Part shown: one piece after another, positions 4,470 through 60,662 of the stretch | Numbering within the stretch: the stretch's first letter is position 1 | How the letters are laid out: the number at the start of each line of letters is the position of its first letter | Assembly: GCA_944372435.1 (NCBI GenBank) | Contig: CALVZD010000001.1 | Location: 1-60,662, forward strand | Reading direction: 5' to 3' | Length of the DNA: 60,662 bases | From: an uncultured Clostridia bacterium | GTDB taxonomy: Bacteria; Bacillota; Clostridia; Christensenellales; UBA1242 | The notes under the pieces: generated by a model | Seen by the model: only the letters and a program-made list of their open reading frames with translations | Databases searched by the model: none | What the model was told of the DNA's origin: nothing | Made by a program: the position numbers and the translations under genes

Positions 4470-6170
4470 TTAATATACGATGATTTCATCAAGTTTTTTT
4501 GAAAGATTTTCCTCAGTTGCAAAGATCTTTTCGCCTGTTGCTCGCAGCGTGATTTCGATGTTTCCGTTTTCGATAGTCTTTGGGCTGATGACTATTCGAA
4601 CAGGTATGCCCATGAGCTCGCTATCCGTCAACTTGACGCCAGCTGAGGCGGCGCGGTCATCATACAAAACCTCAAAATTTTCTGCTTGCAGTCTGGCATA
4701 CAATTTTTCGGCCTGAGCTCTGACGCGTTCGTCATCCAGCCTTAATGGGCAAAGATAGATGTGCCATGGCGCAACTGCCATCGGCCAGCATAAGCCTTTT
4801 TCGTCGCTGCTCTCCTCTGCTATGCTTGCAAGGCATCTGCCGACGCCGATCCCATAGCAGCCCATAATTGGGTTCATCGCAGAGCCATCCGGATTGCTGA
4901 CAGCAAGCCCCATCGTTTTGGTGTAGCGCGTGCCGAGCTGAAAAATGTTGCCGATCTCGATACCGCGTTTAACAAGCAACTCATGGCCACAAACTGGGCA
5001 CTTTTCGCCCTCTTTGACTTTGGAGATGTCCACATATCTTTCTGGTTTGACATCTCGAGTCATGCTGACGCCGATAAAGTGATAGCCTTCTCTGTTTGCG
5101 CCTGTCACAAAGCTTTCTAGCCCTTCCAAGGATTTGTCATAATATATCTCAGCGCCCTCAACGTTGAGGTTCACGCAGCCTATGTTGCCTTTGACGAGCC
5201 CACTTTCAGACAGGTCCTTTATTGCGATGTCCGATCCAACCAGAATTTTTAGTTTTGCCTCATTGACCTCTTTGTCGCCGCGCAAAAAGGCAATCACCAC
5301 CCTTTTGCTGTCGCCAACGACGGCATAGCAAACCGCTTTTGCAATTTGTGAGGGGTTTTTGTTGAGGTTTGAGCACACCTCGTCGATTGTTTTGGCCTCG
5401 CCTGTGAAAACCTCGGTTTTGACGCCAAAGATATGCTCGTTTTCCTCTGGAATTGAGGTTGCAACGTCGACATTTGAAGCGGTGTCGCAGTGTGGGCAGA
5501 CTATGATCGTGTCCTCGCCGATATCGGTGAGCAGTTGAAACTCATCAGCAACTTTTCCGCCCATCATGCCTGAGTCAGAATGCACCGAAATCACTTTTTT
5601 CATGCCCATGCGATGAAAGATTCGAAAATATACGTCATACACTTTGCTGTAATAGCTTTCTAGGTCTTTTTGAGTGGCGTGAAAGGAATAGGCGTCTTTC
5701 ATGGTGAACTCTTTCACTCTTATAAGCCCTGCCCTAGGTCTTGCCTCATCGCGATATTTTGTTTGAATTTGATAGATCATAAACGGCAGCTGATCATAGC
5801 TTTTCAAACTGCCAAGAGCTGAGTGCACAGCCGCCTCTTCGTGCGTCATGCCAAGCACCATGTCGTGCCCTGTGCGGTCTTTAAAGCGCAACAGCTCCTC
5901 TGCGATCGAGTTGTATCTGCCCGAAAGCTCCCAAAGCTCGCGAGGCATCACGACTGGGAAAAGGCACTCCTGTCCGTCGAGCGCGTCCATCTCCTCGCGA
6001 ATTATCTGTTGCAGTTTCAGATTGATGCGTTGAGCCGGAGGAAGCAAAGTGTAAATTCCGTTTGACACCTGCTTTATGTAGCCCGCTCTGACAAGATAAG
6101 CGTGGCTTTTTGAGCTGGCTCCCGCAGGATTATCTTTCAGCCTTTCGCCGACAAGTTTTGATAGTTTCAT
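4470..6170 (-). CDS. proS: proline--tRNA ligase
   Basis: ORF trimmed to MKLSKLVGERLKDNP. AGGAGGAAGA SD. The ATG overlaps the xseB TGA (ATGA). Bacterial-type ProRS with an editing insert. Confidence 0.93.
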   Translation of the reverse strand: MKLSKLVGERLKDNPAGASSKSHAYLVRAGYIKQVSNGIYTLLPPAQRINLKLQQIIREEMDALDGQECLFPVVMPRELWELSGRYNSIAEELLRFKDRTGHDMVLGMTHEEAAVHSALGSLKSYDQLPFMIYQIQTKYRDEARPRAGLIRVKEFTMKDAYSFHATQKDLESYYSKVYDVYFRIFHRMGMKKVISVHSDSGMMGGKVADEFQLLTDIGEDTIIVCPHCDTASNVDVATSIPEENEHIFGVKTEVFTGEAKTIDEVCSNLNKNPSQIAKAVCYAVVGDSKRVVIAFLRGDKEVNEAKLKILVGSDIAIKDLSESGLVKGNIGCVNLNVEGAEIYYDKSLEGLESFVTGANREGYHFIGVSMTRDVKPERYVDISKVKEGEKCPVCGHELLVKRGIEIGNIFQLGTRYTKTMGLAVSNPDGSAMNPIMGCYGIGVGRCLASIAEESSDEKGLCWPMAVAPWHIYLCPLRLDDERVRAQAEKLYARLQAENFEVLYDDRAASAGVKLTDSELMGIPVRIVISPKTIENGNIEITLRATGEKIFATEENLSKKLDEIIVY

Positions 6171-12145: not shown

Positions 12146-13048
12146 TCACCAGCGCAGCAAGCGCGAAAAATTTTCGTCGAAAATTCCCTCAATCGTGCCA
12201 GGCCCATCACGCATTGAAAGCAGCACAAACCTTTTGAAAATTTTCTCTTCTAAAATCTCTCTGAACGCAAGCTTTTTTGAAAAGGCCTCGATTGAGTCGG
12301 AATGCGCGGAAGCTATGATATTCACCCCAGAATTTGAGGCATATTTGACGGCTTCCATATCCTCCCACTCGCCGAGTTCGTCTGTGACAATAACGTTTGG
12401 CGCAAGCGATCTTATGCCGTTTTCAAAGCCGATTTTTTTGCTTGAAAAGCTGATGACATCCGAAAACACACCAAGCCCTCGCCCTATGTTCAGCTCGCCC
12501 CTTTCGTCCAATACAAGGATGTTGTAAGCAAGATTGCGCTCGGAAAGCTGCCAAACAAAATCACGCAAAAAAGTTGTTTTGCCGGCGCCTGGCGGCGAAA
12601 TGACGAGGGTGTTTAAAATTCCGCTGTCTTTAACTATCGAAGAGAACGCTTTGAGCGAGCAATTTCGGATTTCGTGAGGGATGCGGATGTTGACAGAGGA
12701 AAACGCCGTCATGGTTTTCAGCACGCCGTTTTCTTCGACTACATTTCCTGCAAGGCCTATCCTCACGCCCTCGCTTGTCACGATGTAGCCTTTTTTTATC
12801 TGCTCGTTGACCGAATAGATCGAGCACTCACTCGCGCGAAAAACTATCTCTTCGATCATAGATTTGGTGGCATAGATCGCCCTGCTTGCCTCTTTGCAAG
12901 GCCCAGAATCGCCGAGAAAAATCTTTTGCCCGAGGCAGGATAAAAGTACAGGCTTGTCCGCCCTTAATCTGATTTCATTTAAACGCGAAAAACCCACTTT
13001 GTTTAAAAGCGGTCTGAAAATCTGATCTGGCAAAATCCCTTCCAGCAT
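12146..13048 (-). CDS. spoIIIAA: stage III sporulation protein AA (secretion-type ATPase)
   Basis: Trimmed to MLEGILPDQIF with an AGGAGG SD. Walker A is SPPGAGKTT. Confidence 0.88.
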   Translation of the reverse strand: MLEGILPDQIFRPLLNKVGFSRLNEIRLRADKPVLLSCLGQKIFLGDSGPCKEASRAIYATKSMIEEIVFRASECSIYSVNEQIKKGYIVTSEGVRIGLAGNVVEENGVLKTMTAFSSVNIRIPHEIRNCSLKAFSSIVKDSGILNTLVISPPGAGKTTFLRDFVWQLSERNLAYNILVLDERGELNIGRGLGVFSDVISFSSKKIGFENGIRSLAPNVIVTDELGEWEDMEAVKYASNSGVNIIASAHSDSIEAFSKKLAFREILEEKIFKRFVLLSMRDGPGTIEGIFDENFSRLLRW

Positions 13049-13066
13049 ATCACGCCTCCTGAAAAG

Positions 13067-13097
13067 AGTATATGAGCTGGTGGCTTTGGCGTATGAA
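13067..13097 (-). promoter_or_regulatory. candidate mother-cell (sigma-E-like) promoter of spoIIIA
   Basis: Reverse strand: TTCATA, 17 nt, CATATACT, about 15 nt before the SD. It only loosely matches the ATA ... CATACA-T consensus. Confidence 0.3.
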
Positions 13098-13383
13098 AAA
13101 CAAAAATGCAAATTTTGTCAAAAAAAATTAAAAAAATTTCAATTTAAAACAAATAGTCAAACGTTTCGATTTGCAAGATGAAAAAACTCAAATTTTTTTG
13201 AAGCATTAAGGGTTTTAACGCAAAAATAAACATGACGGCGTTTTCTCCATGCACCCCACAAAACACAAAATTGCTCTCACAAAGTTTTTTCTTTAATCAT
13301 CAAAGCAATGCGATCTTTACAAAAGTCAAGAATATAAAAAGCATGGCGATCTCTGCAATCACAAGCCTTGTGTCGTTAGATAT

Positions 13384-13422
13384 AAAAAAAGCTATTATGT
13401 TATGTTTTGATAACATAATAGC
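13384..13422 (-). terminator. terminator of efp; intact copy of the 32-nt AT-rich hairpin repeat
   Basis: Reverse strand: GCTATTATGTTAT-caaaac-ATAACATAATAGC (13-bp stem) followed by TTTTTTTATATC. Confidence 0.75.
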
Positions 13423-13431
13423 TTGAAAACC

Positions 13432-13995
13432 TTAGTTTTTGCAACGCTCGAGATATGAACCGTCGCGAGTGTCGATGCGAACGCGATCGCCTTGATTGAC
13501 AAAAAGAGGAACGCTGATCACAAAACCTGTTTCAAGTTTTGCAGGTTTTGAGGCTGACTTTGAGGTGTCGCCCTGCACTGCTGGTTCACAATCAACAATT
13601 TGAAGTTCAACAAAGGTTGGAGGATAAACAGCAAACGGAGTGCCCTTGTAGAAATACATCGTTGCGTTCATATTTTCCACCATAAAGTTGAGCGCGTCTT
13701 CAACGGCATCCTTGTTAAGTGGGATTTGGTCGAAAGTTTCGGTATCCATAAAGTAGAAAAGCTCGCCGTCGCTATAGAGATAGGTCATCTCCTTTTTTTC
13801 AATGACTGCTGATTGAAATTTGTCTGACGGGTTGAAAGTGGTCTCTTTGACTTGACCTGTCATAACGTTTTTGATTTTTGCTCTTACAAATGGCGAACCT
13901 TTGCCTGGCTTAACGTGCAAAAAGTCGATAACGGTGTAAACCGCGCCATCCATTTCAAAAGTTGTTCCTTTTCTAAATTCACCTGCTGTGATCAT
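13432..13995 (-). CDS. efp: elongation factor P
   Basis: [33 protein letters not shown]; 187 aa. Confidence 0.96.
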
Positions 13996-14055
13996 AAAGT
14001 TTTCTCCTTTTTTTGTGACTTTGTTAAAACAATTTAATTTTACCTTATTATTCTA

Positions 14056-14928
14056 TCATAACTTGCTTTTCTTGCCAAGTGTTTTTTGATAAATTTCTTT
14101 CATTTCTAGTGCATCTTCTGCCATTTTGCCGGAGGATTCGCAAATTATGTGTGGCGAAAGGCCCAAAGATATCAATGCGTCGCAGAGCGGTTGAAAATCT
14201 GGACCATAAAGTTCGTCTTCGAAAGTCAGGTGCCTGATCTCGCCTTTGCTGCCATACTCGATTTTTGAGAAGTGAATGTGGCATTTTTCAGTTCGCTCTC
14301 TGCCGATGAGTTCGATTGAGCGAGCAAAGATTTTGACAAAGTCGTCTTTTGTTTTAAGCGAGCCCTGAGTTAAAGCGTTTATGTGCCCAAAATCGAAGGT
14401 CGGCAAAAGGTGGCTGTTTTGCGCGCAGATTTGCAAGATTTCTTCATATGTTCCGATCTGTTTGGTCTTTCCCATAGTTTCAGGACAAAGATATACCCCC
14501 TCCAAAAGCCCCTGTTTTTCAAGATTGTCCGCAAGCTCTCCGATTCTGCTTTTTGTAAGCAAAAACGCCTGCTCTCTGCTGAGATTGCCCTCAGAACCCG
14601 GATGGAAAACCAAACGCGAACCTTTGAACTCTTTCAAAAATTTGAGACCTGTTGTTATGTAGCCATATGTTTTTGCAAGAAGTTCGCTGTCTTGCGAAGC
14701 GAAGTTGATAAAGTAAGGCGCATGGATTGAAAGCTCAATGCCCTGCCTTTCAAACTCCTGGCCAATCTGTCTTGCTGTTTCAAAACTCATGCGATAGCCT
14801 CTGCCAAACGAGTATTCATATATATCGAGCCCCTTTTCCTTAACCCATTTTGCAGCTGCAAGTGTTCCGTCGTTGCCCTCTGCATAAAATGAATCGCTGT
14901 TTCCAGCAGGTCCAAACAAAGCTTTCAT
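14056..14928 (-). CDS. endonuclease IV-like TIM-barrel protein (AP endonuclease family 2)
   Basis: Metal-ligand pattern IHAPYFINF, VFHPGS, LCPETMGK, FDFGHINA, HIHFS, ICES. Confidence 0.6.
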   Translation of the reverse strand: MKALFGPAGNSDSFYAEGNDGTLAAAKWVKEKGLDIYEYSFGRGYRMSFETARQIGQEFERQGIELSIHAPYFINFASQDSELLAKTYGYITTGLKFLKEFKGSRLVFHPGSEGNLSREQAFLLTKSRIGELADNLEKQGLLEGVYLCPETMGKTKQIGTYEEILQICAQNSHLLPTFDFGHINALTQGSLKTKDDFVKIFARSIELIGRERTEKCHIHFSKIEYGSKGEIRHLTFEDELYGPDFQPLCDALISLGLSPHIICESSGKMAEDALEMKEIYQKTLGKKSKL

Positions 14929-14937
14929 GTTTTCTCC

Positions 14938-15798
14938 TTAAAATAATCTTGTTTCAAGTTTTAAAAAGTTTTTTTCAATTTTTCCTATGCCTAAAAACAC
15001 ATTTGAATAGATTTTGTAGTTTCCATCAGGTTTTTCGACAAAAATTTTAGCACCGTTGAGCAGCTTTTGAGAACTTTCTTTTTCGACCAAAATTTTTGGA
15101 TAGTCAAACAAGGTCTCTGGTGCGATCAAATGAAATTTGCCTGCTTTTAAATCATCCAAAGTGAAAGCGTCTTTGAGTTGAAAATCTCCACATTTTGTGC
15201 GTATTATGTCATAACACACACCACACGTTGAAAATTCTGTGGCAAGATCGCGAGCGAGCGCTCGGATATATGTGCCAGCAGAGCAGCTGACTTCCAGCTC
15301 AAAAAAGTTTTCAGAAAGCTCTCGCAATACCTTTATAGAATAGATAGTCACTTTTTTAGGCTGCAAAACAACATCTTCGCCTTTGAGTGCAAGCTGATAT
15401 GCCCTTTTTCCGTTCACTTTTTTTGCTGAATAACTTGGCGGAAGCTGATTTTGCTCTCCTGTGAATTTTGAAAGCACCTCTTCCAGCATTTTTTTGGTTA
15501 TTTTTTTGCATTCGACCTTTTCGATTTCTCCTTCAAGGTCAAAGGTGACGCTTTTTTCACCAAATTTTATTTTTGTTGTGTAGGTTTTATCCTTTTTGAG
15601 AAAATGGTCGAAAAGTTTGACTGCCGAATTGATTGCCACCGGCAAGAGCCCCTCAGCTTCGACATCCAAAGTCCCCAAGTGCCCCGCTTTTTTTGCGCCG
15701 AGAGTTTTTTTGACAAGGTTCACCACCGAAAAAGAGGACATCTTTCGAGGCTTGTTTATCAAGATTATTCCGCTTGCATCAAAATTTTGTGCGTTCAT
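14938..15798 (-). CDS. truB: tRNA pseudouridine(55) synthase
   Basis: GIILINKPRKMSSFSVV..GHLGTLDVEAEGLLPV is the TruB catalytic Asp motif. Confidence 0.93.
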   Translation of the reverse strand: MNAQNFDASGIILINKPRKMSSFSVVNLVKKTLGAKKAGHLGTLDVEAEGLLPVAINSAVKLFDHFLKKDKTYTTKIKFGEKSVTFDLEGEIEKVECKKITKKMLEEVLSKFTGEQNQLPPSYSAKKVNGKRAYQLALKGEDVVLQPKKVTIYSIKVLRELSENFFELEVSCSAGTYIRALARDLATEFSTCGVCYDIIRTKCGDFQLKDAFTLDDLKAGKFHLIAPETLFDYPKILVEKESSQKLLNGAKIFVEKPDGNYKIYSNVFLGIGKIEKNFLKLETRLF

Positions 15799-15808
15799 AT
15801 GCTGCTCC

Positions 15809-16750
15809 TTAGCGGTTTTCGCGTATTGCTTTCAAAATCGCTTCACGCACTTGTTTTAAATTGCCTTTCAATATGCATCCAGCGGCTTGAGCATGCCCTC
15901 CACCGCCGAGTTTTTGCGCTATCTTTGCAACATCCACGCTTGGCATCGATCTGAAGCTGCACCTAAAAAAGTGGCGACCGGTTTGTTTGATGAGACAAGC
16001 AATGTTTATGCCGTCGAGATAAATTAGGTCGTTTGTGAACTTTACTTCGCTTTCCTTCAAGCCAAAAGTTTTAAAATCTTTTTGTGTGATTTGAGTGATC
16101 GCGATGTCGTTGTCATAGATTTTTATTTGCTCAAACGCCTTCGACCTAAGCTTTTCTGCGGCGAGCGATTTGGTTTTGAATATGATTTGATTGACCTTTT
16201 GTGTGTCTGCCCCAAAACTTGCAAGTTTGAAGGCATTTTGATAGGTGTCTTTTGTGACATTTGTTGTCAAAAAGCTTGCCGAATCGCTTGCAAGGCCTGC
16301 AAAGAGATAGGTTGCAGCTTTTTTGTTTGGTTTTTTGCCAATTTTTTCGATGAGGTTTAATATAACCTCGGCGGCAGAGGATGCGTTTTGCACAATTTCA
16401 ACTGAGGCGGATTTAAAAATCCCCTTGTGGTGATCGAGACGCAGCGTGTTTTTTTGTGAGGCAAAAAAGTCTGCGTGTTTGCCAATCAAATTTAAAGATG
16501 CTGTGTCGACGAGGATGCAAAGGTCGCAGGGTTTTGGCTGAGCGGAGAGCAAATTTGGATCGAAGAGCTTTGCGTCGTTTGGTGAGATTTCATCGTCAAG
16601 AAAGAGCTGCACCTTTTTTCCCTGCGATTTTAAAAACTCACCTAACCCAAACATCGATCCGAGTGCGTCGCAGTCATATGAGGTATGTGAAAACACGGCA
16701 ACAGTTTTTGCCGCGTTTATCATAGAAGTTGCTTTTTCAAATTTGTTCAT
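15809..16750 (-). CDS. nrnA: DHH-family phosphoesterase (NrnA-like oligoribonuclease / pAp phosphatase)
   Basis: Motifs HTSYDCDALGS, LRLDHHKG and GGGGHAQAAG. Confidence 0.8.
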   Translation of the reverse strand: MNKFEKATSMINAAKTVAVFSHTSYDCDALGSMFGLGEFLKSQGKKVQLFLDDEISPNDAKLFDPNLLSAQPKPCDLCILVDTASLNLIGKHADFFASQKNTLRLDHHKGIFKSASVEIVQNASSAAEVILNLIEKIGKKPNKKAATYLFAGLASDSASFLTTNVTKDTYQNAFKLASFGADTQKVNQIIFKTKSLAAEKLRSKAFEQIKIYDNDIAITQITQKDFKTFGLKESEVKFTNDLIYLDGINIACLIKQTGRHFFRCSFRSMPSVDVAKIAQKLGGGGHAQAAGCILKGNLKQVREAILKAIRENR

Positions 16751-17111
16751 CTTCTTCCTCTTTTGGTGGAATGTTCAGCCCTTTCAAAAGCTCGTCAACA
16801 CGCATTGCGTTTTGCAGATTTTTGTCGAAAACAAATTCGAGTTTTGGCAGATATGGCATATCGAGCATCTGAGAGAGTTTGTGTTTGATAAAACCCTCAG
16901 AGTTTTTGAGAGCTGCGATGACAGAATCAGCGCGCTTGTAATCGCCGTTTGTTATTGCTATTTTGACTTTGCAATGGCGAAAATCCTGCGAGAGCTTCAC
17001 TTCGCTCACTCCAACAAAATCATCGATCCTCGGATCGTTCATTTGAAGATGCAGAATGTTTTGAAGAGCCTTTTGCAGTTGCGAGTTTGCCCTTTCAATC
17101 CTCATTGACAT
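16737..17111 (-). CDS. rbfA: ribosome-binding factor A
   Basis: 124 aa; RIERANSQLQKALQNIL..DPRI. Confidence 0.9.
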   Translation of the reverse strand: MSMRIERANSQLQKALQNILHLQMNDPRIDDFVGVSEVKLSQDFRHCKVKIAITNGDYKRADSVIAALKNSEGFIKHKLSQMLDMPYLPKLEFVFDKNLQNAMRVDELLKGLNIPPKEEEDEQI

Positions 17112-17114
17112 ATC

Positions 17115-19541
17115 TCACCTCTTTATTGGTTCGCTGACAAAAAACTCGATAGTATCGTCCTCTTTAAAGTCGATGTTGTCGCGCAGTTTTATGCCGCACT
17201 CATAGCCTTTGACTACCTCAGCCTTTTCGTCTTTGACGATTTTCAAAGACTCAACGGTTGTTTTGCCGATTTCCTCGCCAGCACGCATAACCTTTGCGAT
17301 GCAGCCGCGAGTCACTTTGCCGTCTTTCACCATGCAGCCCGCAATTTTGCCGGCGGTCGAAAGCTTGAACACAACTCTGATTTCAGCCATACCGATATAC
17401 TTTTCTTCGTATTTGACTGTCAGCATGCCGTTTATCGCGCGCGTGATGTCGTCGACAACTTCATAGATGATCTTGTATTCTTTGATTTCGATCTTCTGTC
17501 TTTCAGCCAGCTGCTTTGCTTTTGCAACAGGTTTGATATTGAAAGCTATGATCACCGACTGTGTTGCGTCTGCAAGGATGAGATCGGATTCTGTCACAGC
17601 GCCTGGTGCAGCATGAACGATGTTGACTTTTGCCTCCTCGTTCGAGATCGGCGAAAGCGTTGAGATCAAAGCTTCAAGCGAGCCTTTTGTGTCCGCTTTT
17701 ATGATAAGGTTGAGATTTTTGAGTGTGCCCTCATGCACTTTGTCCATAAAGTCATCAAGGCTGACGCCACTCGTTTTGAGAGCGTTGGCTTTTTTGATCT
17801 TGTCGATCCTTTCTTGGATGACTTGTTTAGAAAGCGACTCGTTGACCTCATAGAAAGCGTCGCCAGAAGATGGAACATCGTTGAAGCCAAGCACCGACAC
17901 AGGCGTTGAAGGAGCCGCCGATTTGACAGGCTTGCCGTGTTCGTCAAACATCGCCTTGACTTTGCCGTAGGTCAAGCCTGAAAGGAAGGAGTCGCCGATG
18001 TTGAGCGTGCCGTTTTGCACGAGAACTGTTGCAACTGGCCCGCGATTTTTGTCGAGCTCGGCCTCCAAAATAACACCGGTTGCAAGGTGTTTTGGATTTG
18101 CTTTGAGCTCTTCCATTTCAGCAACGAGCAAGATCATAGATTTGAGTTCATCGAGCCCTTGACCTGTTTTTGCCGAAATAGGAACGCAGATCGTGCTGCC
18201 GCCCCACTCCTCTGGCAGCAGGTCATGTTCGGCGAGCTGCTGTTTGACTCTGTCGATGTTTGCCTCTGGCTTGTCGATCTTGTTGATCGCAACGATCACA
18301 GGAACGCCAGCCGCTTTGATGTGATTGATCGCCTCAACAGTTTGTGGCATAATGCCGTCGTCAGCTGCCACAACAAGGATCGCGATATCCGTCGACTTTG
18401 CGCCACGAGCGCGCATTGCGGTGAACGCAGCGTGACCTGGTGTGTCGATAAAAGTGATCTTTTCGTTGTTAAAAGTGATCTGATATGCACCAATTTTTTG
18501 GGTTATGCCACCAGCTTCGCCTGCGACGACATTCGTCTTTCTGAAAGCGTCGAGCAGCGATGTTTTGCCGTGATCGACATGGCCCATGACTGTGACGATT
18601 GGTGGGCGTTTGACGAGCGATGCAGCATCTTCTGAGGCTTGATTTTGCTCTTCGAAAAGTTTTTCTTCCATAGTTTTGTCAAGCTTAAGCTCGAGCGTTA
18701 CGCCAAGCTCGCTTGCAACAAGTTCGGCGGTTTCAAAGTTGATGCTGGAGTTGATTGTTGCCATGATGCCGAGCAGCATAAGCTTTTTGACGATTTCAGC
18801 AACAGGTCTGCCTGTTTTTTCGCTGAGGTCCTTTATTGTGATCTCGTTGGAGGTTATAACGGCGTGTGTGACTTTTGGAGCGACAGTCGTTTCTTGCTTT
18901 TTCTTCAATTTGTTGGTCGCCTTGCGCGTGCCCATCGTCGACTCTTCAAAGTCGTTGTTTTCGTCGAGCATAATCACGCTTTGGCGCCTTGGATCGACAG
19001 CTTTTTTTGCTGGCCTCGTTTTTTCATCGAGGTTTTTCTTTTGTGGGTTTTTGTTTTTGTTGCCAAAAGTGCGCTCTGGCTGAACTGCGATCGTTTCAGC
19101 AGGTTCGTGATTGGCAAAAGATCGAAAATTGTTGACCTTTGTCGAAATAAATTTTGCGCTTTTTCCTGTTTGTTGTTGCGGCTTTGAGTCGAAAGCTTTT
19201 TGCTTGCCACCAAAATTTTGCTTGCGCTGATCGCCGCTTTGTTGCGGTCTTTTATCATCAAAGCGCTTGAAGTTGTTGTTTGGCGCCGGCTTTGAATTTG
19301 AAAAAGACGGAGATTTTTGCGGTTTTTGAGGCTCTTCGGCTTTTGGCTTTTGCTGCTCTTGCTCTTTGATTTTTTGAGCTTCCTGCTTTGCAAGTTTTTC
19401 CTTTTTTGACGCTAAAAGCTGTTTTGAATGATCTTCAAGCTGTGATTTTAGAGCTCGCAAATCCCTGAGCAGTTCAAGCAAACTGCCCTCTTTTTGCATA
19501 TTGTGAATTGTTTTTAGATTGTTTAATGCTTGATTTGCCAA
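17115..19541 (-). CDS. infB: translation initiation factor IF-2
   Basis: G-domain motifs [17 protein letters not shown] and NKID. Low-complexity K/Q/P-rich N-terminus. TTG start with a GGGAGA SD. Confidence 0.95.
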
Positions 19542-39595: not shown

Positions 39596-39876
39596 CCGAA
39601 CACTCCTGCAAAATATGCCGGAAATGCAACGACGAAGATATAAAAGATTGTGACGAGGATCAAAAGCACAAGCAGAATTATTTTGAAAATATTGCCTGTG
39701 AAATTTGTCACAGCAAAGGCAAAAAGCAGAGCAACACCGCCATACATCGAGGTGTAATGCACCACCTGCCCCCAAGCGCCGAGTGCTGACAGATCCGGCA
39801 CCGCTGCGACATAGATCATCAGCGCGATATAGGCGATCACTGCAATAGAAAGCACAAGATATATCAATCGTTTCAT
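39586..39876 (-). CDS. small hydrophobic membrane protein (3 TM), unknown function
   Basis: 96 aa. Its ATG overlaps the upstream stop (ATGA). Confidence 0.6.
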   Translation of the reverse strand: MKRLIYLVLSIAVIAYIALMIYVAAVPDLSALGAWGQVVHYTSMYGGVALLFAFAVTNFTGNIFKIILLVLLILVTIFYIFVVAFPAYFAGVFGLA

Positions 39877-40943
39877 TCAGCCACCTTTTTTGTTTTTCTT
39901 TCGGCTTTTTCAAGTTTGCGTTCAAATTTGAGGAGCTTTTTCTCGTCTTTTGCTCGCTCTTTTTCTTCTTTTTCCTTTTCTTTTTCGGCTTTAAGCTGCT
40001 CTTTTTTGAGCTTGATCAAGGTTTTATCCTTTTTAACCTTGCTTTTTTTGACTTTGCTTTTGGTTTTCTTTTTGCGTTTTTTGATTGTAAGCTTTTTGGA
40101 GCCATCCTCAGGCATGCTTTCAAGCAAGCAGTCTGGATTGGCGAACATATCCTTCCAAATTCGCAGAGATTTTGCAAAATAGAAGCCGTCTGCCACACGT
40201 TCGTCCATAGTTATGCCAAGGTTCATGACTTTTCCGAGTTTGAGCTCTTTGTTCTTTTCAACAACAGGCGCAATCTTTTCCTTGCCCATAGCGACAAACA
40301 AGCTGCAATTTCCAAATTCATAGAGATGGTGGAAGATTGCATCGTTTTTGATCGATTTGAGGTTTGTCAAAAATGCACTGCAATGAAAACAGCTGTCTTC
40401 GATGAGCGATTTTGGCATCATGTTGTGGCGATCCATCCATCTGACAACCCATAACGCAAATCTCCTCACCCATTTTGGAAATTTGCAGAACACGGCAGCC
40501 GTGTCGGTTGTGCCATAGTTTGAATCTGGAGAAACATGCTTTTCAATCAGCCCGTCGACATATTCCTTGACCTGTTGAAGGCTCTCTCTGCCGGTGAAGT
40601 GAAACTTGAGATCGACATCCTCACCTTCGTCAGAAAGCTGTTTTTTGACAACCATGCAGATTGAGATGTCCTTATGCTCATATATCACATTGTGGTTGAC
40701 AAAATAGTTGAGCTTTGGTCTGAGATACAAAAGCCTGACAAGTGCCGTCATCATTATGTGCGTGTAGGTGTAGTGATTGCCGAGTTTGCGTTGCCTTGAA
40801 ATGAACTCGTCCATCGCCTCGCATCTGATTTGATCCATAAAATAGTTTGAAGCGCCAATTCGATCTCTCATAAAAAATGGAGCCATTTTTGTGACTGGGT
40901 CGAGCCCTTTTACTATAATTCCGTCACTTCTTTTATTGAACAT
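39873..40943 (-). CDS. stand-alone 2-oxoacid dehydrogenase E2 / CAT-like acyltransferase-fold protein with a ~85-aa Lys/Glu tail
   Basis: GITMDERVADGFYFAKSL aligns to the E2 catalytic DHRxxDG motif, with Glu in place of His. AAAGGAGAAA SD inside the rarA 3' end. Confidence 0.55.
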   Translation of the reverse strand: MFNKRSDGIIVKGLDPVTKMAPFFMRDRIGASNYFMDQIRCEAMDEFISRQRKLGNHYTYTHIMMTALVRLLYLRPKLNYFVNHNVIYEHKDISICMVVKKQLSDEGEDVDLKFHFTGRESLQQVKEYVDGLIEKHVSPDSNYGTTDTAAVFCKFPKWVRRFALWVVRWMDRHNMMPKSLIEDSCFHCSAFLTNLKSIKNDAIFHHLYEFGNCSLFVAMGKEKIAPVVEKNKELKLGKVMNLGITMDERVADGFYFAKSLRIWKDMFANPDCLLESMPEDGSKKLTIKKRKKKTKSKVKKSKVKKDKTLIKLKKEQLKAEKEKEKEEKERAKDEKKLLKFERKLEKAERKTKKVAE

Positions 40944-42357: not shown

Positions 42358-43551
42358 CTATTCGCCTTTTATTATAAGGCAATTCTGCAAATTTTTAAGT
42401 TCTTTCAAATTTATGAAATTTTTTCCGAAAAATTTGGTTTTGTCAAGCTGCAAATAGCTCTGTCCCTCAGTTTTTGCAATGTTTATCGTTTTCCATTCTC
42501 TTCCGTCAAAAAGCTGCAAAGAAAGCAGATTTTCAAGCCCAGCAAACACAAAATTTTTGCCGTTTTTTATCACAAAGTTTTCTTTGAGCTTGCCATACTC
42601 AATTTCGCTTTCGCGTTCCTCTTTGCCGCTGAGCCAAGACAAATATATTCGCTCAGGCAGAGTTTGATTGAGACGGCGCTGCAAAGCCTTGTCTTTCGAC
42701 TTTATGCGCACGTTAAACCTCTCCTGCACTTGCCTGTCAGCCTCTGCCATAAACATCTCCATCTCGCCTTGATTTGACAGCACAAACTTTTGATCGCCAA
42801 AATTGAAAAAATGCACACGCTTTTGTTTTGGTTTTAGTGTCACCTCACACAGCACATTTATGCAAGCGTGCGTGCAGTTTTCGACGCCATCGATGCAGGA
42901 AAACACAAACTTTGACTTTCGACACGAAAAGTTGAAGTAGGTTTTGTCCAACGAAAAAAGGTCGGTCACTTCGATGTGATTTGCCTTTTTTTGAAAAAAA
43001 TAATATCCGCGTTTTAAAGGAATGTTGATGCAAAAGTTGAGAGTTTTTGGTGAGTCTGAAAGGTTTAAAAACTCAAAATAAAAGCTTCTTCCGCACATGA
43101 CGAATTCCTTGGCGTAAAATTTTATGTCGTTCTCAATCCCGCTTGATTGAAGATAAAAGTTATGCAAACATAAGTTTTGTCTGACTCCGTTTATTTCAAC
43201 ATAATTTTCTTCGGCTTTCAGGTGATAGCCTGAATGGCAGCGATAATTTATGTTGAGTTTGTTTATGTCGGTGTTGTTTTTTAAAATTATCGCGCCGAGC
43301 TCTTTTTGGGCGCGTTTGTTTTCTTCTGGCAGAACAAGGTTAAAATCACACACAGATTTTGCGCGTTTGAAGCATTTAAAAAGCGGTCGCGAGAGAGTTT
43401 TGTCGAACTTGAAAACAGGCAGCGAAGGGTCGACGCCGAGCTTTATCAGCCTGTCGAAGTCGACATCAGTGCTGTAAAGGATAGGCGCGTGAAACCTAAG
43501 CCTATTTAGGATCAAATTTGTCATATTGAAAAGATAATCGCGTTTTTTCAT
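42358..43551 (-). CDS. hypothetical Cys/Phe/Asn/Lys-rich protein, 397 aa
   Basis: The tracked ORF was trimmed because its first 11 codons overlap the rnpB terminator. I recognise no domain. Confidence 0.5.
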   Translation of the reverse strand: MKKRDYLFNMTNLILNRLRFHAPILYSTDVDFDRLIKLGVDPSLPVFKFDKTLSRPLFKCFKRAKSVCDFNLVLPEENKRAQKELGAIILKNNTDINKLNINYRCHSGYHLKAEENYVEINGVRQNLCLHNFYLQSSGIENDIKFYAKEFVMCGRSFYFEFLNLSDSPKTLNFCINIPLKRGYYFFQKKANHIEVTDLFSLDKTYFNFSCRKSKFVFSCIDGVENCTHACINVLCEVTLKPKQKRVHFFNFGDQKFVLSNQGEMEMFMAEADRQVQERFNVRIKSKDKALQRRLNQTLPERIYLSWLSGKEERESEIEYGKLKENFVIKNGKNFVFAGLENLLSLQLFDGREWKTINIAKTEGQSYLQLDKTKFFGKNFINLKELKNLQNCLIIKGE

Positions 43552-43570
43552 AACAAAAGTTTTGCCATAA

Positions 43571-43599
43571 AAAGAAAAAAGCAAACCATAAAAGTTTGC
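43571..43599 (-). terminator. terminator of rnpB
   Basis: Reverse strand: GCAAAC-ttttatg-GTTTGC followed by TTTTTTCTTTTT. Confidence 0.75.
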
Positions 43600-43606
43600 T
43601 TTGGTC

Positions 43607-43938
43607 AGCCAAACATAAGCCGAGTTCTGTGTTCTGTGGTCATCTATCTAGGCCTGTTGTTGCCAGCAGGCTCAAGCGTTGCTTTTGGAAGGCGTGAAAG
43701 ACGGCACATTGCCTTCACTTAAACTTGCATCGGGTGGGGTTTACAGTGACGAGAGATGTCTCCACCTCTCCGGTGAGCTCTTACCTCACCTTTCCATCCT
43801 TGCCTTTTTAGGGGCGGTTTATTTCTGTTGCACTTTCCTTAGAGTCGCCTCCACCGGCCGTTAGCCGGCACCCTGTCTTTTGATGCCCGGACTTTCCTCA
43901 CTTTGCTTTTAAGGCAAACCGCGACCACAAGTTTGACT
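43607..43938 (-). ncRNA. rnpB: RNase P RNA
   Basis: Reverse strand carries GAGGAAAGTCCGGGC, GGAAAGTGCAACAGAAA..CCGCC, GGTGAGGTAAGAGCTCACC and ACAGAACTCGGCTTATG. P1 pairs AGTCAAAC (5') with GTTTGGCT (3'). Ends are approximate. Confidence 0.9.
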
Positions 43939-43947
43939 GACGAGATT

Positions 43948-43977
43948 ATTTTAGCACAACTCTCGCTCTGCTGTCAA
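43948..43977 (-). promoter_or_regulatory. sigma-A promoter of rnpB
   Basis: Reverse strand: TTGACA (43977-43972), 18 nt, TGc-TAAAAT (43953-43948). Confidence 0.65.
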
Positions 43978-43978
43978 G

Positions 43979-45334
43979 TCAGTTGACGGTGAAGAGCAGT
44001 TTTGGCTGTTTTTTGTCGCTAGCAAAGCCCTGAATTTCGCCGTCTTGCGATATTTTGAGTGCGACGCCGTATTTTGACAGCGCCATTGCGGCCGCTTTTC
44101 TTCCTCCACCGCTGATAGAGCCAGCTTCGATTTTGAGTATCGCTCCGGCGGTTATGATCGTGCCATCAAAGTCGACGATGGTGGCGCCGTCCATTGCTAT
44201 AATCTCCTCTCTGATCTGTCTGCCGAGTTCATGGAATTTTTTGCCCTGGATGATCTGCTTTAAGCATATCGATTTGAAGTAGCAGTTTTTTGCCAAAAAG
44301 TTTTCAAAATCGTCGCTGTAATATTTTTTCATCTCTTCGGCGTTGTTGATGTTGTAAAGCTTGTCTGCCTCTTCAAGCTGCTGCTCGCGTTTGATGTTGT
44401 AATATTTTTCTTCGATTATGTCGCTTGCGTTGACATGTGAAAGCGCCTGCTCAGCCATGTCGCGATTCAAGTAGACGATTATTCCGCCTGAATATTTGAA
44501 CGAGCAATCGAGAGAGGTCAAATAAATCGCTCTTCGAACTTCACGCAAAGAGTGAGACGAGCGATATGAAAGCAGCTGAATCACCTCTTCGTGGCTGTAA
44601 ATGTTCCACTTTCCTCGCCTTTTTGCAAACATCAAAGTGCGGTTTTTGAAAATGAGCAGGTCGCCGCTTTCAGTGAGCACGATCCCAACTTTGCGGTCGT
44701 TGCAATATCTTGCCACATAGTTAAAATCGTTTGGCGAAGTTGTGGCATAGTTTCTCACCTTGTCAAGCGACACATAGCCGGTCAGATAGCCCTCTCTGTT
44801 GAACTCGACAAATGAGTGCCTGCCGTCTGAAAGCAAAACAAAAAAGTCGGTCGAGATGATGTTGGAATAATGCAGATTTTTTTCGTCTGCGTTTTCGGAA
44901 AGGTTTAAGATGATGCCAAAATCGACGGCTTTGCCCTCGTAGGTGCGATGGCTCCATGTTGTGAGAGCGTTGACAAGCCCAAGCATAACCGAAGATGCCG
45001 AAGACGCCACACTGTCGCAAACCGCCTTTTCCACTGCTTTTTCGTGGAGAGTAAGCTCGTAGGTCGGATCCAAAACTGCCGAGTCATTGATCTGGCTCAG
45101 CTCTTTTAATATGTTTTTTAATAGTGAAATTTCAAATGGTTGAAAAGCCCTGCCGCGTTTGATGATAAATCTGTAATCGGCGGACTTGTTTGGTTTGATC
45201 AAGAGCGAGTTTTGCTTGCCGATTGCAACTTCGGATTCTCTTGCGCTCGACTCCTCTTCACCCAAAAGAATAGATCCGGTGAATAAAGGCAAAATCAATT
45301 TTGTCAGCACAACATAAAACTTTTCTTTCTCCAA
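43979..45334 (-). CDS. divergent DisA_N/DAC (diadenylate cyclase)-fold protein with a large N-terminal region
   Basis: The C-terminus SGGIIVYLNR ... MDGATIVDFDGTIITAGAILKI...GGGRKAAAMALSKYGVALKISQDGEIQGF parallels GALIV ... HDGAVII..AA...GTRHRAA...vvVSEEtG. An upstream segment (GIILN..LLSDGRH..GIVLTESGDLLIF) looks like a degenerate second copy. TTG start. Confidence 0.55.
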   Translation of the reverse strand: MEKEKFYVVLTKLILPLFTGSILLGEEESSARESEVAIGKQNSLLIKPNKSADYRFIIKRGRAFQPFEISLLKNILKELSQINDSAVLDPTYELTLHEKAVEKAVCDSVASSASSVMLGLVNALTTWSHRTYEGKAVDFGIILNLSENADEKNLHYSNIISTDFFVLLSDGRHSFVEFNREGYLTGYVSLDKVRNYATTSPNDFNYVARYCNDRKVGIVLTESGDLLIFKNRTLMFAKRRGKWNIYSHEEVIQLLSYRSSHSLREVRRAIYLTSLDCSFKYSGGIIVYLNRDMAEQALSHVNASDIIEEKYYNIKREQQLEEADKLYNINNAEEMKKYYSDDFENFLAKNCYFKSICLKQIIQGKKFHELGRQIREEIIAMDGATIVDFDGTIITAGAILKIEAGSISGGGRKAAAMALSKYGVALKISQDGEIQGFASDKKQPKLLFTVN

Positions 45335-45386
45335 AGCGCAAAACCCCTTCTAGTTGCATTTTACAATAAAAATAACAAAAAAGCAA

Positions 45387-46103
45387 TCAATTTTCATCTT
45401 TATCATAATAATTTTTTGCCAAATCGCCTTTTATTTCTTCGAGCGCCTTGGCTTCTATGCGAGAAACATAGCTTCGAGATATGCCAAGCTCGTCAGCAAG
45501 CTCCTTTTGCGTGTAGACTTTTTGACCGTTGAGCCCATAGCGTTTTATTATGATCTCTTTTTCCCTGTCGGTCAAACGCAGGTTTATCGCCGAGTTGATC
45601 TTTTCCATGATAAAACTCGATGAAACCGCGTCCTCGACTTCATCTTCGTCGGATTCGAGGATATCCATGAGCAGCACCTCGTTGCCGTCTTTGTCGGAGG
45701 CAAATTTGCTGGAAAGCGAGACGACATCCTTGTGTTTTTTATTGACTCGGATCAGCATCAAAATTTCGTTGTCGATGCACTTTGAGGCGTAAGTTGCGAG
45801 CCCCACGCCTTTTTTGTAGTCAAAGCTGTCGATGGCTTTGATCAGCCCTATCGCGCCCACCGAGATCAGATCGTCGACCTCGATGCTGACAGAACCTGCG
45901 TATTTTTTGACGATATGCGAAACCAGCCTCAAATTGTGGTTGATGAGCCGGCTTCTTGCCTGTTTGTCGCCCTTTTCGCGATAGCGGAGCAGCAATTCCT
46001 GCTCCTTTTCTTTGGTCAGAGGTTTTGGAAACCCCTCGCAGCTGTTGATAAACGCAGTAAAACATCTTAGTTTAGACAAAAAAAACGGCAAACTTTCAAA
46101 CAC
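45387..46103 (-). CDS. sigK: sporulation sigma factor SigK (pro-sigma-K), uninterrupted
   Basis: FPKPLTKEKEQELLLRYREKGDKQARSRLINHNLRLVSHIVKKY, LISVGAIGLIKAIDSF and KCIDNEILMLIR. GTG start with an AAAGGAGAAA SD. Confidence 0.8.
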   Translation of the reverse strand: MFESLPFFLSKLRCFTAFINSCEGFPKPLTKEKEQELLLRYREKGDKQARSRLINHNLRLVSHIVKKYAGSVSIEVDDLISVGAIGLIKAIDSFDYKKGVGLATYASKCIDNEILMLIRVNKKHKDVVSLSSKFASDKDGNEVLLMDILESDEDEVEDAVSSSFIMEKINSAINLRLTDREKEIIIKRYGLNGQKVYTQKELADELGISRSYVSRIEAKALEEIKGDLAKNYYDKDEN

Positions 46104-46170
46104 AAAATTTCTCCTTTTAGAGAAATGTATATGTCGAATTTTACCGAATTTTGCTTGGACATATAAATTA

Positions 46171-46716
46171 TTAAATCATTTTAAATATGTTAATTACAGT
46201 TTTCTTTTTTCGGCAGGCATATTCATAAGCGAGTCTTGTGCCGCTTGTTGGCCTATATAATGTTAAACATCGTTTCGCATATTGTCTTAAATTTGGAGAA
46301 TAGTTTTCATTATAATAAAAAACGCAAATATCACTGTCATCAATCATAGCAAAATTTCGTTCCACATAACCTGCTTTTCCTGCTGAGTATTTTTTTGAAT
46401 GTTCGTATTCTTCCTCAAAACCCATAAATTCACTTTCAACTTTTGAAATTTCTCTAAATTGTTTTTGTAGTAATTCGCGCTCTTTTTCTAACACACAAAA
46501 CTCAGATTTTGAAGTGTAAAATATTCGTTTTATATTATGTTTAGGCATTAAGCTTGTTACGACGATATGACACAAAGTATTAAAATCACTCTTACTACCA
46601 AAGATAAAAGTATCAACAAAATAATTGTCAATTAATGTTTTGACTACACTATAAAGTTTTTCTTTTACTACTTTGTGTTCATCTATTTTCCTGTGGCCAA
46701 TAAAGCATACTTTCAT
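46171..46716 (-). CDS. SLOG-superfamily protein (DUF1273/YpsA-like)
   Basis: MKVCFIGHRK..FIFGSKSDFNT..VERNFAMIDDSDICVFYY parallels YpsA (MKVLAITGYK..ISGQLG..NQFFIDKSDGLLLLY). Confidence 0.6.
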   Translation of the reverse strand: MKVCFIGHRKIDEHKVVKEKLYSVVKTLIDNYFVDTFIFGSKSDFNTLCHIVVTSLMPKHNIKRIFYTSKSEFCVLEKERELLQKQFREISKVESEFMGFEEEYEHSKKYSAGKAGYVERNFAMIDDSDICVFYYNENYSPNLRQYAKRCLTLYRPTSGTRLAYEYACRKKKTVINIFKMI

Positions 46717-46863
46717 ATTATTTTCCTATGGTTATATATAACCATTGATATTATACATTAAAATTTTTTAATCTCAAAACAAAATATAGGATATAGTTAC
46801 ACATAACCATAATAATTTGTTTTAAATTTCTATAATATGGCTATACATAGTTATGAGGTAGCA
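46717..46863. promoter_or_regulatory. divergent promoter/operator region between the SLOG and XRE genes
   Basis: An 18-bp perfect palindrome ATGGTTATATATAACCAT (46728-46745) lies between the SLOG -10 box (TATAAT, 46755-46750) and its SD. Related half-sites are ATAACCAT (46803-46810) and ATGGCTAT (46837-46844). The plus-strand TATAAT is at 46831-46836. Confidence 0.6.
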
Positions 46864-47106
46864 ATGAACTCAGTTTGCAGAGCGGTCGCTCTTAGAATTT
46901 CAGAGTTGTTAAAGCAAAAAGGCATGACGCAATACAGGCTTGCCATGAACAGCGGTATAACTCATTCGACTTTGAAAAATATAATGCACGAAACGATAAA
47001 AGACAGTTTGCTTTCCACAGTCATACTGATTGCTAGCGGTTTTGATATGACTGTCAGTGAATTTTTGGATAGTCCTTTGTTTTTGGAAGAAAATTTGAAT
47101 ATTTAA
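46864..47106 (+). CDS. XRE-family helix-turn-helix transcriptional regulator
   Basis: Trimmed to MNSVCRAVALRISELLKQKGMTQYRLAMNSGITHSTLKNI with a GAGG SD. Confidence 0.8.
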   Translation: MNSVCRAVALRISELLKQKGMTQYRLAMNSGITHSTLKNIMHETIKDSLLSTVILIASGFDMTVSEFLDSPLFLEENLNI

Positions 47107-59587: not shown

Positions 59588-60662
59588 TTAAATTTTCCAT
59601 TCAGAAGGAATTTGGATTGGAGAATAATTTTTTTTGAGTGACTCGCTGGCGTCGAGGATTTGGTAGTATTCATTTATTGCACTTGAATCCTTCATAGCTT
59701 TCAAAAATTTGTCGATCGCTTCATCAAACACTTTTTTATCAATATTTTTATCAACAATGTAGAAGCCTTTTTCATCGCAAAGAATATTTTCATCTTCATC
59801 AACTTTCAAAAGGCTGTAAGGTGAAATTTTAAGTTTGTCAACACGGTTAGTAATCTTTTTGAGGTTGCTGTTGATAATGCCGCAATCTCTCTTTTGCTTT
59901 TCAGACAAATTTTTATAGTCTTCTGCTGCGTTGTTTAACATGCTGTTGTATCTGAAATTTGCAACATCATACAAAGTGAGCATTTTTGAAAAATCGTCAA
60001 CTTTTGCCTTTTTGGCCTTAATCTTTGCGATCCTTTCTTCTTTTGCAGCTTTTTCAGCTTCTTCGGCTTTGAGTTTTTCTGCTTGTTTTGCCTGATAGAT
60101 TGGCAAAAGCTCTTTGTCGGCAGCGGCAACAAAGTCAAGTTCTTGCAAGTCTGCGTTCATCAATTCATTAACCATTGTTTTGAGACGTTTGAAGAATGGA
60201 TTTTTGTTTTCCAAGCGTTCGTCAGCCACAACTGTGTGAGCGATATTTTTTGCAACTCTCATTGCAACATAGTCATAACTTAAACCAAGTTTGTTCTTTT
60301 CGTAATAGTTAATAAGATCAACCAATCCTGCAATTTTTTCAGCACCCCCAAAAGTTCTTTGTTCGCGCATTTTTGCTGGAACAAATTTGCCGTAAAGCAG
60401 ATCCTCGACAACATTATGTTTGCGAGAGACATTTCTCACCAGAATTTCATTTTTGAGCATATTTTTGACTTTGTTATATGAGTTTTGAATTGAAACAATA
60501 TCTCTATCTAAAAAGCCTTTTTCAGGTTGAGTTTCTGCCTTATAAACTGTTGCAACATAAAGCTTTGCGTTTTTGATGATGTTTGCAGCTGCTGCCTTTG
60601 ATTTTACGTAGAGATCCTTGAGCACTTTCTCATTTTTTTTGTCACCCAAAAACTCAAGAATA
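59588..60662 (-). CDS. hypothetical protein with a central Lys/Ala/Glu coiled-coil-like segment; 5' end may lie beyond the window
   Basis: The frame stays open to the window edge. The tracked start at 60649 is a TTG with no stop upstream. No domain recognised. Confidence 0.5.
   Translation of the reverse strand, partial: ILEFLGDKKNEKVLKDLYVKSKAAAANIIKNAKLYVATVYKAETQPEKGFLDRDIVSIQNSYNKVKNMLKNEILVRNVSRKHNVVEDLLYGKFVPAKMREQRTFGGAEKIAGLVDLINYYEKNKLGLSYDYVAMRVAKNIAHTVVADERLENKNPFFKRLKTMVNELMNADLQELDFVAAADKELLPIYQAKQAEKLKAEEAEKAAKEERIAKIKAKKAKVDDFSKMLTLYDVANFRYNSMLNNAAEDYKNLSEKQKRDCGIINSNLKKITNRVDKLKISPYSLLKVDEDENILCDEKGFYIVDKNIDKKVFDEAIDKFLKAMKDSSAINEYYQILDASESLKKNYSPIQIPSEWKI

Follow-up and report, generated by a model that had tools for sequence, protein, structure and literature searches.

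A strongly diverged diadenylate cyclase-like gene located behind sigK in an uncultured Clostridia bacterium

We analyzed a stretch of 60,662 nucleotides (nt) from an uncultured Clostridia bacterium (contig CALVZD010000001.1 of assembly GCA_944372435.1, positions 1 to 60,662), which is called the window below, and focused on an open reading frame (ORF) that encodes a protein related to the diadenylate cyclases (DACs). The ORF is located between a sporulation sigma factor gene (sigK) and the RNase P RNA gene (rnpB). The surrounding DNA of the window is chromosomal and consists of core genes on the minus strand, including proS, infB, nusA, thrS, polA, rarA, smc, ftsY, plsX and ackA. The features of the locus are as follows.

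43979 to 45334, minus strand: DAC-like ORF of 451 amino acids (aa) with a TTG start, taken from the ORF list and encoding a multi-domain protein of the DAC superfamily
45335 to 45386, minus strand: sigK-to-gene spacer of 52 nt, containing a ribosome-binding site and no terminator-like site
45387 to 46103, minus strand: sigK-type sporulation sigma factor gene of 238 aa with a pro-sequence-like N-terminus (NCBIfam NF004471)
46128 to 46154, minus strand: promoter-like element GCAA-N(12-20)-CATATA upstream of sigK, conserved in related loci
43601 to 43940, minus strand: class A RNase P RNA (Rfam RF00010, 272 bits), 38 nt 3' of the stop codon of the DAC-like ORF
43948 to 43977: sigma-70-like promoter of the RNase P RNA, from a promoter scan
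43578 to 43602: terminator of the RNase P RNA, from a terminator scan

The ribosome-binding site, GAAGGGG, occupies positions 45344-45350, 9 nt 5' of the TTG start, and the homologues of the protein open with the same M-E/D-K residues. The GC content of the gene (45.3%) and its GC content at third codon positions (GC3, 0.555) are like those of the adjacent core genes; from this native composition and the core surroundings, the DAC-like gene is a resident core gene in the branch to which the window belongs. The sigma factor encoded 5' of it scores 275 bits against the SigK model (cut-off 252) and stays under the cut-offs of the SigE, SigG and SigF models. A previous reading of this DNA, made from the sequence alone, had pointed to a 52-nt gap after sigK without a terminator; a search for a terminator-like hairpin in this spacer likewise found none, and the fold energy of the spacer is weak (-5.6 kcal/mol).

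The domains and motifs of the encoded protein are listed below.

44951 to 45334, minus strand: N-terminal module 1, residues 1-128, consisting of a helix, four strands and three long helices (model confidence about 90)
44564 to 44950, minus strand: module 2, residues 129-257, an alpha/beta region with the family-wide motifs TYEG, SxG, NGEIL-F and FAKRRG-W
43982 to 44563, minus strand: C-terminal diverged DAC (DisA_N-like) domain, residues 258-451, based on PF02457 matches in relatives, Foldseek and hhalign
44222 to 44467, minus strand: helical insertion in the AlphaFold2 model, residues ~290-371, from the first DAC strand to the helix before DGA
44183 to 44191, minus strand: D382-G383-A384, the DGA catalytic motif, aligned with the DGA of CdaA/DisA
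44087 to 44110, minus strand: G409-G-G-R412-K-A-A-A416, the altered counterpart of GTRHRAA according to hhalign
44039 to 44056, minus strand: K427-I-S429-Q-D431-G432, the counterpart of VSEETG (Ser and acidic residue) according to hhalign

That the C-terminal ~190 residues constitute a strongly diverged DAC domain is supported by Pfam matches in relatives, by structural comparison and by profile alignment. The Pfam DAC model (PF02457) matches eight of 33 close homologues on their last ~60 residues (protein residues 376-431 against positions 45-105 of the 119 in the profile; best E 1.7e-6), with only one of these matches, that of P0089, exceeding the gathering score (28.1 vs 27 bits). It also matches 25 of 112 distant relatives at E <= 0.01 (best E 4.8e-7). 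These 112 proteins are representatives of separate 50%-identity clusters and are ~30% identical to the query; no competing Pfam family recurs among them, in that no other family matched more than once. In the relative P0131, residues 279-391 match profile positions 7-100, with the first strand included.

We also compared an AlphaFold2 model of the whole protein (mean predicted local distance difference test score, pLDDT, 85.6; predicted template-modelling score, pTM, 0.72) with the PDB by using Foldseek. The top 14 matches are all DisA (E 5.6e-4 to 5.4e-2, probability 0.96-1.0), and nothing significant was found in the PDB besides DisA, so that the structure prediction bears out the DAC-like fold that had been proposed from the sequence. 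In addition, the C-terminal profile of the family was aligned by hhalign with a profile of six CdaA/DisA sequences recovered from the PDB. The score of 30.3 over 103 columns was reached by none of 150 column shuffles (12.3 +/- 2.2), and the probability in the default run was 14.9%. The alignment places MDGAT on HDGA, GGGRKAAA on GTRHRAA and KISQDG on VSEETG, and thereby reproduces three correspondences of the block order claimed in the sequence-only reading. A further one, between GGIIVY and GALIV, is backed indirectly, by the P0131 match and a modelled strand at residues 284-289. One family member, encoded on a Bacillus bombysepticus plasmid, is named 'DisA nucleotide-binding domain protein' in RefSeq.

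The residues of the putative active site are conserved over long distances. G283, D382, G383, G397, G410, R412, S429 and D431 are invariant in the 112 clusters, and D276, S278, F279, F367, R372, R375, A384, G391, A414, A415, K427 and G432 are conserved in at least 90% of them. In the structures of CdaA and DisA, the Asp of DGA, together with the Ser and the acidic residue, holds the metal and phosphates. The RHR triad is incomplete, as had been noticed before: R412 is kept, the His has become K413, a position that varies within the family, and a conserved Ala, A414, takes the place of the second Arg. R372, R375 and K427 could be stand-ins for the lost His and Arg. Given that DGA, one Arg and Ser-x-Asp-Gly show little or no variation among the clusters, conservation leads us to favour an active enzyme with a remodelled phosphate site over a dead domain. 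The pseudo-enzyme option therefore appears less likely than it was first taken to be, with D382, G383, R412, S429 and D431 unchanged throughout. A preprint on minimal DACs gives D, G, G and R as the residues that are conserved in every curated bacterial DAC, and these correspond to four invariant residues here. The DAC domain of PanS, whose site is altered, makes 3'3'-cUA, in which UMP and AMP are joined in a ring; altered-site DACs can thus make other products, and the product in the present case is therefore not fixed as cyclic di-AMP (c-di-AMP).

The insertion between the first two DAC blocks had been put at ~80 residues. Its presence holds, but its size does not: G283 and D382 are separated by 99 residues, compared with ~40 in CdaA, which gives an insertion of roughly 55-60 residues. 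In the AlphaFold2 model, the first DAC strand (284-289) comes after a helix and is followed by insertion helices at 294-300, 309-325, 329-338, 343-349 and 353-362 and then by the helix before DGA (372-380). About 40 residues of the insertion are missing in most distant relatives.

The two N-terminal modules are less easily placed. Module 1 has no Pfam or PDB sequence match, in agreement with the previous remark that the first ~120 residues resemble nothing recognizable, while one distant relative shows a marginal Robl_LC7 match; it is possible that this module is a sensor or regulatory domain. Module 2 contains Y132, E133, G134, P201, L220, G224, R239 and W243, which are invariant or nearly so in the 112 clusters. 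Residues ~130-240 had been proposed to be a second, degenerate DAC half, and the order of secondary-structure elements in 129-257 does resemble a DAC half; moreover, DACNH of the CdaG proteins, described as a very distant and inactive DAC relative, provides a precedent. An hhalign comparison of residues 129-257 with 256-451 recovered the expected register with P = 0.006, yet five of 150 shuffles were equally good, and residues 129-257 gave no hhalign signal against canonical DACs. A separate model of residues 1-262 (pLDDT 83.8, pTM 0.82) had no DisA or CdaA match in a Foldseek search of the PDB, its best match being longin-like (E 0.14, probability 0.41); for the N-terminal 260 residues, a match to a known fold was not obtained. 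Because of the shuffles and the missing DisA/CdaA match, the claim is not confirmed, and a distant DAC duplicate in module 2 is no more than possible.

The synteny sample consisted of 80 species-level genomes with 48-84% protein identity, all of them metagenome-assembled genomes of uncultured Clostridia/Christensenellaceae type. Of the 75 loci with usable upstream sequence, 70 have a sigK homologue as the immediate upstream neighbour, encoded on the same strand; most orthologues in this sample thus stay beside sigK, and the adjacency is still present at 45% identity. The spacers between sigK and the gene have a median of 114 nt, 63 of them being shorter than 300 nt. The order ftsY - sigK - gene - rnpB - orf408 - rarA is mostly kept in the related loci. 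On the downstream side, rnpB is inverted in L015-L020 and L035, and it was not found in the examined downstream sequence (at most 4 kb) of L013, L040, L045, L054, L056, L058, L060, L061, L063, L070 and L075. The junction between the gene and rnpB is therefore less stable than that between sigK and the gene.

We also examined the sequences upstream of both genes. In 63 of 70 loci, the element GCAA-N12-20-CATA[TA]A is located 22-68 nt upstream of the start of sigK (shuffle mean 0.3), often with G[GT][AC]CA[AT] ahead of it, and it occurs in none of 71 sigK-gene spacers. Its -10 half resembles mother-cell (sigmaE/sigmaK) promoters, and it is not an exact fit to the sigmaK or sigmaE strings of B. 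subtilis. The textbook strings themselves (CATAnnnTA for sigmaK, CATACAnT for sigmaE) are not enriched as written, either upstream of sigK or in the spacer. In the window, the two genes show operon features: they share a strand, and the 52 nt between them contain neither a terminator nor another promoter of the type upstream of sigK. With no terminator present and the promoter-like motif only 5' of sigK, read-through from sigK is the simplest expression model, and the gene is plausibly co-transcribed with sigK, as far as the arrangement of the sequence goes.

The family extends far beyond these loci. A word-indexed search gave 509 full-length homologues, all unnamed or annotated as 'hypothetical', and an exhaustive search gave 1254 clusters (50% identity) at E <= 1e-3, including 396 at E <= 1e-30. 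Most members found in the exhaustive search are about 400-420 aa long, and the family spans Clostridia, Bacilli and Alphaproteobacteria. No NCBIfam or PADLOC model matches the sampled family members, and PADLOC v2 gave no meaningful match for the window protein and nine distant relatives. A scan of viral contigs matched the pattern but confirmed no relative, and nothing was found in a viral structure library. No Pfam, NCBIfam or PADLOC model and no source annotation names the family. As a family it matched no database model, and some of its members may be in the catalogue of 22 DAC architectures (Galperin 2023). Compared with known systems, its architecture and its active site are a new variation within the DAC superfamily, whereas the kind of system is a known one.

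The contexts of distant members were taken from about ten sampled loci, where they are stand-alone genes in accessory DNA, such as plasmids, defence islands and the surroundings of transposases. One lies between an MmeI-type restriction-modification/SNF2 pair and McrBC with GmrSD, another near a faint SLATT_4 match and an HNH gene; a third adjoins recombinase and helix-turn-helix (HTH) genes, and a further one is close to a transposase. Among the plasmid-borne members, that of Bacillus is surrounded by HNH, NucS and recombinase genes, that of Paracoccus stands among insertion sequence (IS) elements and that of Vescimonas is in a conjugative region. On the Agrobacterium vitis plasmid pRvVAT039d (L096; record 12390-18190), a 426-aa member stands tail-to-tail with a complete type II operon of an anti-phage signalling system based on cyclic oligonucleotides (CBASS), which comprises genes for a patatin, a DncV-like cGAS/DncV-like nucleotidyltransferase (CD-NTase), a ThiF/E1-like protein and an MPN/JAB protein. 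Two different cyclic-nucleotide synthase folds would then stand side by side, as has been reported for CdaG proteins.

Some side observations concern the upstream sequences of other relatives. At L081, which is seen on contigs of at least 24 assemblies, a 68-residue GerE/LuxR-type HTH gene (4690-4896, plus strand) is located 5' of a 472-aa relative on the same strand, with a gap of 104 nt. This could be a second case of a family gene after a small transcription factor gene of late mother-cell type, or it could be a coincidence. At L086, L088 and L089, ~0.55-1.2 kb without a called gene precede the family gene at 5001, and these long upstream regions might contain small ORFs or a regulatory RNA.

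Based on these results, the explanation that we prefer is that the gene encodes a sensor-regulated nucleotide synthase of the DAC superfamily with an altered phosphate loop, and that it is a core gene behind sigK, probably co-expressed with it; our confidence in this sequence-based explanation is evenly balanced. The ~260-residue N-terminal region with its two modules would probably act as a sensor or regulator, and the C-terminal DAC domain would bind a nucleotide triphosphate and a metal ion and catalyze nucleotidyl transfer. As is the case for other DACs, two copies would pair head to head, and their most likely product would be c-di-AMP or a related (cyclic) dinucleotide; in view of the altered phosphate loop and the additional conserved basic residues R372, R375 and K427, this product is uncertain. 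The gene would probably be read from the sigK promoter, and the mother cell would then produce the protein at a late stage of sporulation. No canonical DAC motif (DGA...RH[RK]) was found in the window or in the first 80 loci, a result that covers those stretches and not whole genomes.

However, several observations weigh against this explanation. The window protein alone has no Pfam (including PF02457) or NCBIfam match at E <= 1; PF02457 matches only its relatives (8/33 and 25/112), one of them above the gathering score. A PDB sequence search with the window protein gave nothing relevant either, the thresholds of these single-protein searches being as permissive as E = 1 to 10. The PDB searches with the single protein and with the full-length and C-terminal family profiles gave no DAC chain and only spurious Arp8 and phosphoglycerate kinase matches. 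The Foldseek alignments with DisA have a high root-mean-square deviation and a low template-modelling score, which is due to the insertion and to normalization by the full length. Of the RHR triad only one residue remains, and a change of RHR is reported to abolish activity in DisA of M. tuberculosis. As for the link with sigK, some spacers reach 350-930 nt, and the adjacency is missing in five close loci and in the nearest out-group cluster. The order is RNase J, methyltransferase, gene and rnpB in L077-L080 and S1 protein, unknown ORF, gene and rarA in L045, in both cases without sigK, and a 43%-identical relative is located between a nucleoside hydrolase gene and a gene for cofactor-independent phosphoglycerate mutase (iPGM), again without sigK. 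The adjacency is limited to one clade and could be an inherited order without functional meaning. The idea of a sporulation-linked cyclase is reasonable but is drawn from synteny within one clade; the adjacency itself is confirmed (70/75) and is lacking in some loci.

We also considered other explanations. That the DAC resemblance is due to chance, and that fold and function are unrelated, seems very improbable to us: the query alone lacks a significant database match and the default hhalign probability is low, but three independent lines concur (PF02457 recurring without a competitor, structural matches to DisA only and 0/150 shuffles), and RefSeq labels one member as a DisA nucleotide-binding domain protein. 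A more serious alternative is a non-catalytic protein of DAC fold, either a sensor of nucleotides or c-di-AMP or a pseudo-enzyme, in which the pocket only binds and the N-terminal modules give the output. It would fit with the reduced RHR triad and the variable position 413, with a degree of divergence at which most members escape the curated DAC models, and with the existence of inactive DAC derivatives such as DACNH in CdaG, known from the literature. However, the residues that bind the metal and activate the 3'-OH in known DACs are invariant over long distances, as are one Arg and the Gly-rich loop; it is precisely such residues that a pseudo-enzyme normally loses, and R372, R375 and K427 might compensate for the missing His and Arg. 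We therefore regard this alternative as unlikely, although clearly less remote than a chance resemblance.

About as unlikely is the notion that the protein is a stand-alone DAC of conflict or defence, whose sensor responds to an attacking phage by switching on the synthesis of nucleotides or the consumption of ATP, and that its place near sigK is incidental. DAC domains have recently been shown to act in anti-phage defence, which gives this notion a precedent, and the distant relatives occur in defence or mobile surroundings (restriction-modification, CBASS, IS and conjugative loci). Against it, the branch of the window is core-like, with native GC/GC3 and synteny across about 75 species-level genomes; the window protein has no partner effector gene and no PADLOC match; the viral contig scan confirmed no relative; and the defence contexts come from the sampled distant loci rather than from a statistical survey. 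Finally, both aspects could be combined if a DAC-like family of plasmids and defence islands became fixed behind sigK as a late mother-cell signal. The remodelled GGR-x-A loop may in that case give a nucleotide other than c-di-AMP, which times or executes mother-cell lysis, programmed death or spore maturation. We offer this last idea as a speculation and consider it improbable, somewhat more so than the binding-only and defence alternatives.

Several other ORFs in the window deserve mention. A 408-aa ORF (42358-43584, minus strand) between the RNase P RNA and rarA has no Pfam or NCBIfam match and is kept at its position in most related genomes with 30-69% identity; being conserved and without a family match, it is a second conserved unknown of the gene cluster. 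Between ftsY and sigK are a 181-aa ORF (46171-46716, minus strand; no family match), with 29% GC and GC3 0.21 against 44% GC for the window, and beside it a divergent 89-aa ORF (46837-47106, plus strand). Since the distance between ftsY and sigK is very variable across related loci, these two ORFs look like a recent foreign islet. Two ORFs of ~355 aa in the core region (39873-40943 and 59588-60649, both minus strand) have no NCBIfam match at E <= 1e-10.

Nearly all cataloguing of c-di-AMP synthases has relied on the Pfam DAC model. Given that this model misses most members of a family of at least 1254 clusters, a considerable part of the superfamily may be absent from DAC censuses. With the metal-binding residues kept and two of the three RHR residues replaced, the family is also a natural test of which residues are needed for DAC chemistry, and it is a candidate source of a new nucleotide product, defence DACs having only lately been found to differ in their products. 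The constant place behind sigK in one lineage leads to the hypothesis, which can be tested directly, that a nucleotide serves as a signal in the sporulating mother cell.

Among known systems, DisA (PDB 3C1Y, 4YXM, 9Y4S, 9Y9Y and 7Y0D) is the best and only significant structural match. It shares with the window protein the DAC fold, DGA, the phosphate-loop Gly-x-Arg and the Ser on the last of the conserved strands. However, the DAC domain of DisA is N-terminal and followed by a helical linker and a helix-hairpin-helix (HhH) DNA-binding domain, whereas that of the window protein is C-terminal, behind 260 residues; the latter also has R-x-A in place of RHR and, from the first strand to DGA, about 55-60 additional residues in helices. 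In CdaA/DacA (PDB 6HVL and 6HUW), DGA, G-x-R and S-x-acid-G are in register by profile alignment. CdaA has N-terminal transmembrane helices, whereas the window protein is all-soluble in the AlphaFold2 model, lacks the His and second Arg of RHR and is missed by curated DAC models, and there is no cdaR or glmM among the identified flanking genes.

With respect to sporulation, CdaS of Bacillus is, to our knowledge, the only precedent of a DAC protein tied to this process, where we know only of CdaS and the DNA-scanning DisA. CdaS is about 200 aa long, with two autoinhibitory helices at the N-terminus and a canonical RHR, and its expression takes place in the forespore under the control of sigmaG. 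The window protein is like it in being a DAC-domain protein with a sporulation tie, but it is not of CdaS type, with its 451 aa, 260-residue alpha/beta N-terminal region and incomplete RHR, and it would be a mother-cell protein if the gene is co-transcribed with sigK.

The CdaG/DS-2C proteins (DACNG-DACNH-DAC, next to CBASS) are likewise large soluble DACs with uncharacterized N-terminal domains. Their DACNH parallels the weak internal similarity of residues 129-257, and distant relatives of the window protein are found, as for CdaG, in defence islands, one of them beside CBASS. However, none of the Pfam models DACNG, DACNH, DACNK and DACNV matches at E <= 0.01 in the 112 members, with DACNK appearing only at E >= 0.13 in 3/33 close homologues. 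CdaG/DS-2C are about 550-575 aa long compared with about 400-490 aa for the window family, and the DAC of DS-2C is a canonical DisA_N domain that is found by Pfam, whereas that of the window family is mostly missed. PanS and the other minimal DACs (Panoptoo/PanDA) are about 150 aa long and operonic with a 2TM-beta effector; the window protein has three times their length and lacks an effector partner. What makes these minimal DACs relevant here is that they show how a DAC domain with a remodelled active site can be active and can make a product other than c-di-AMP, such as 3'3'-cUA.

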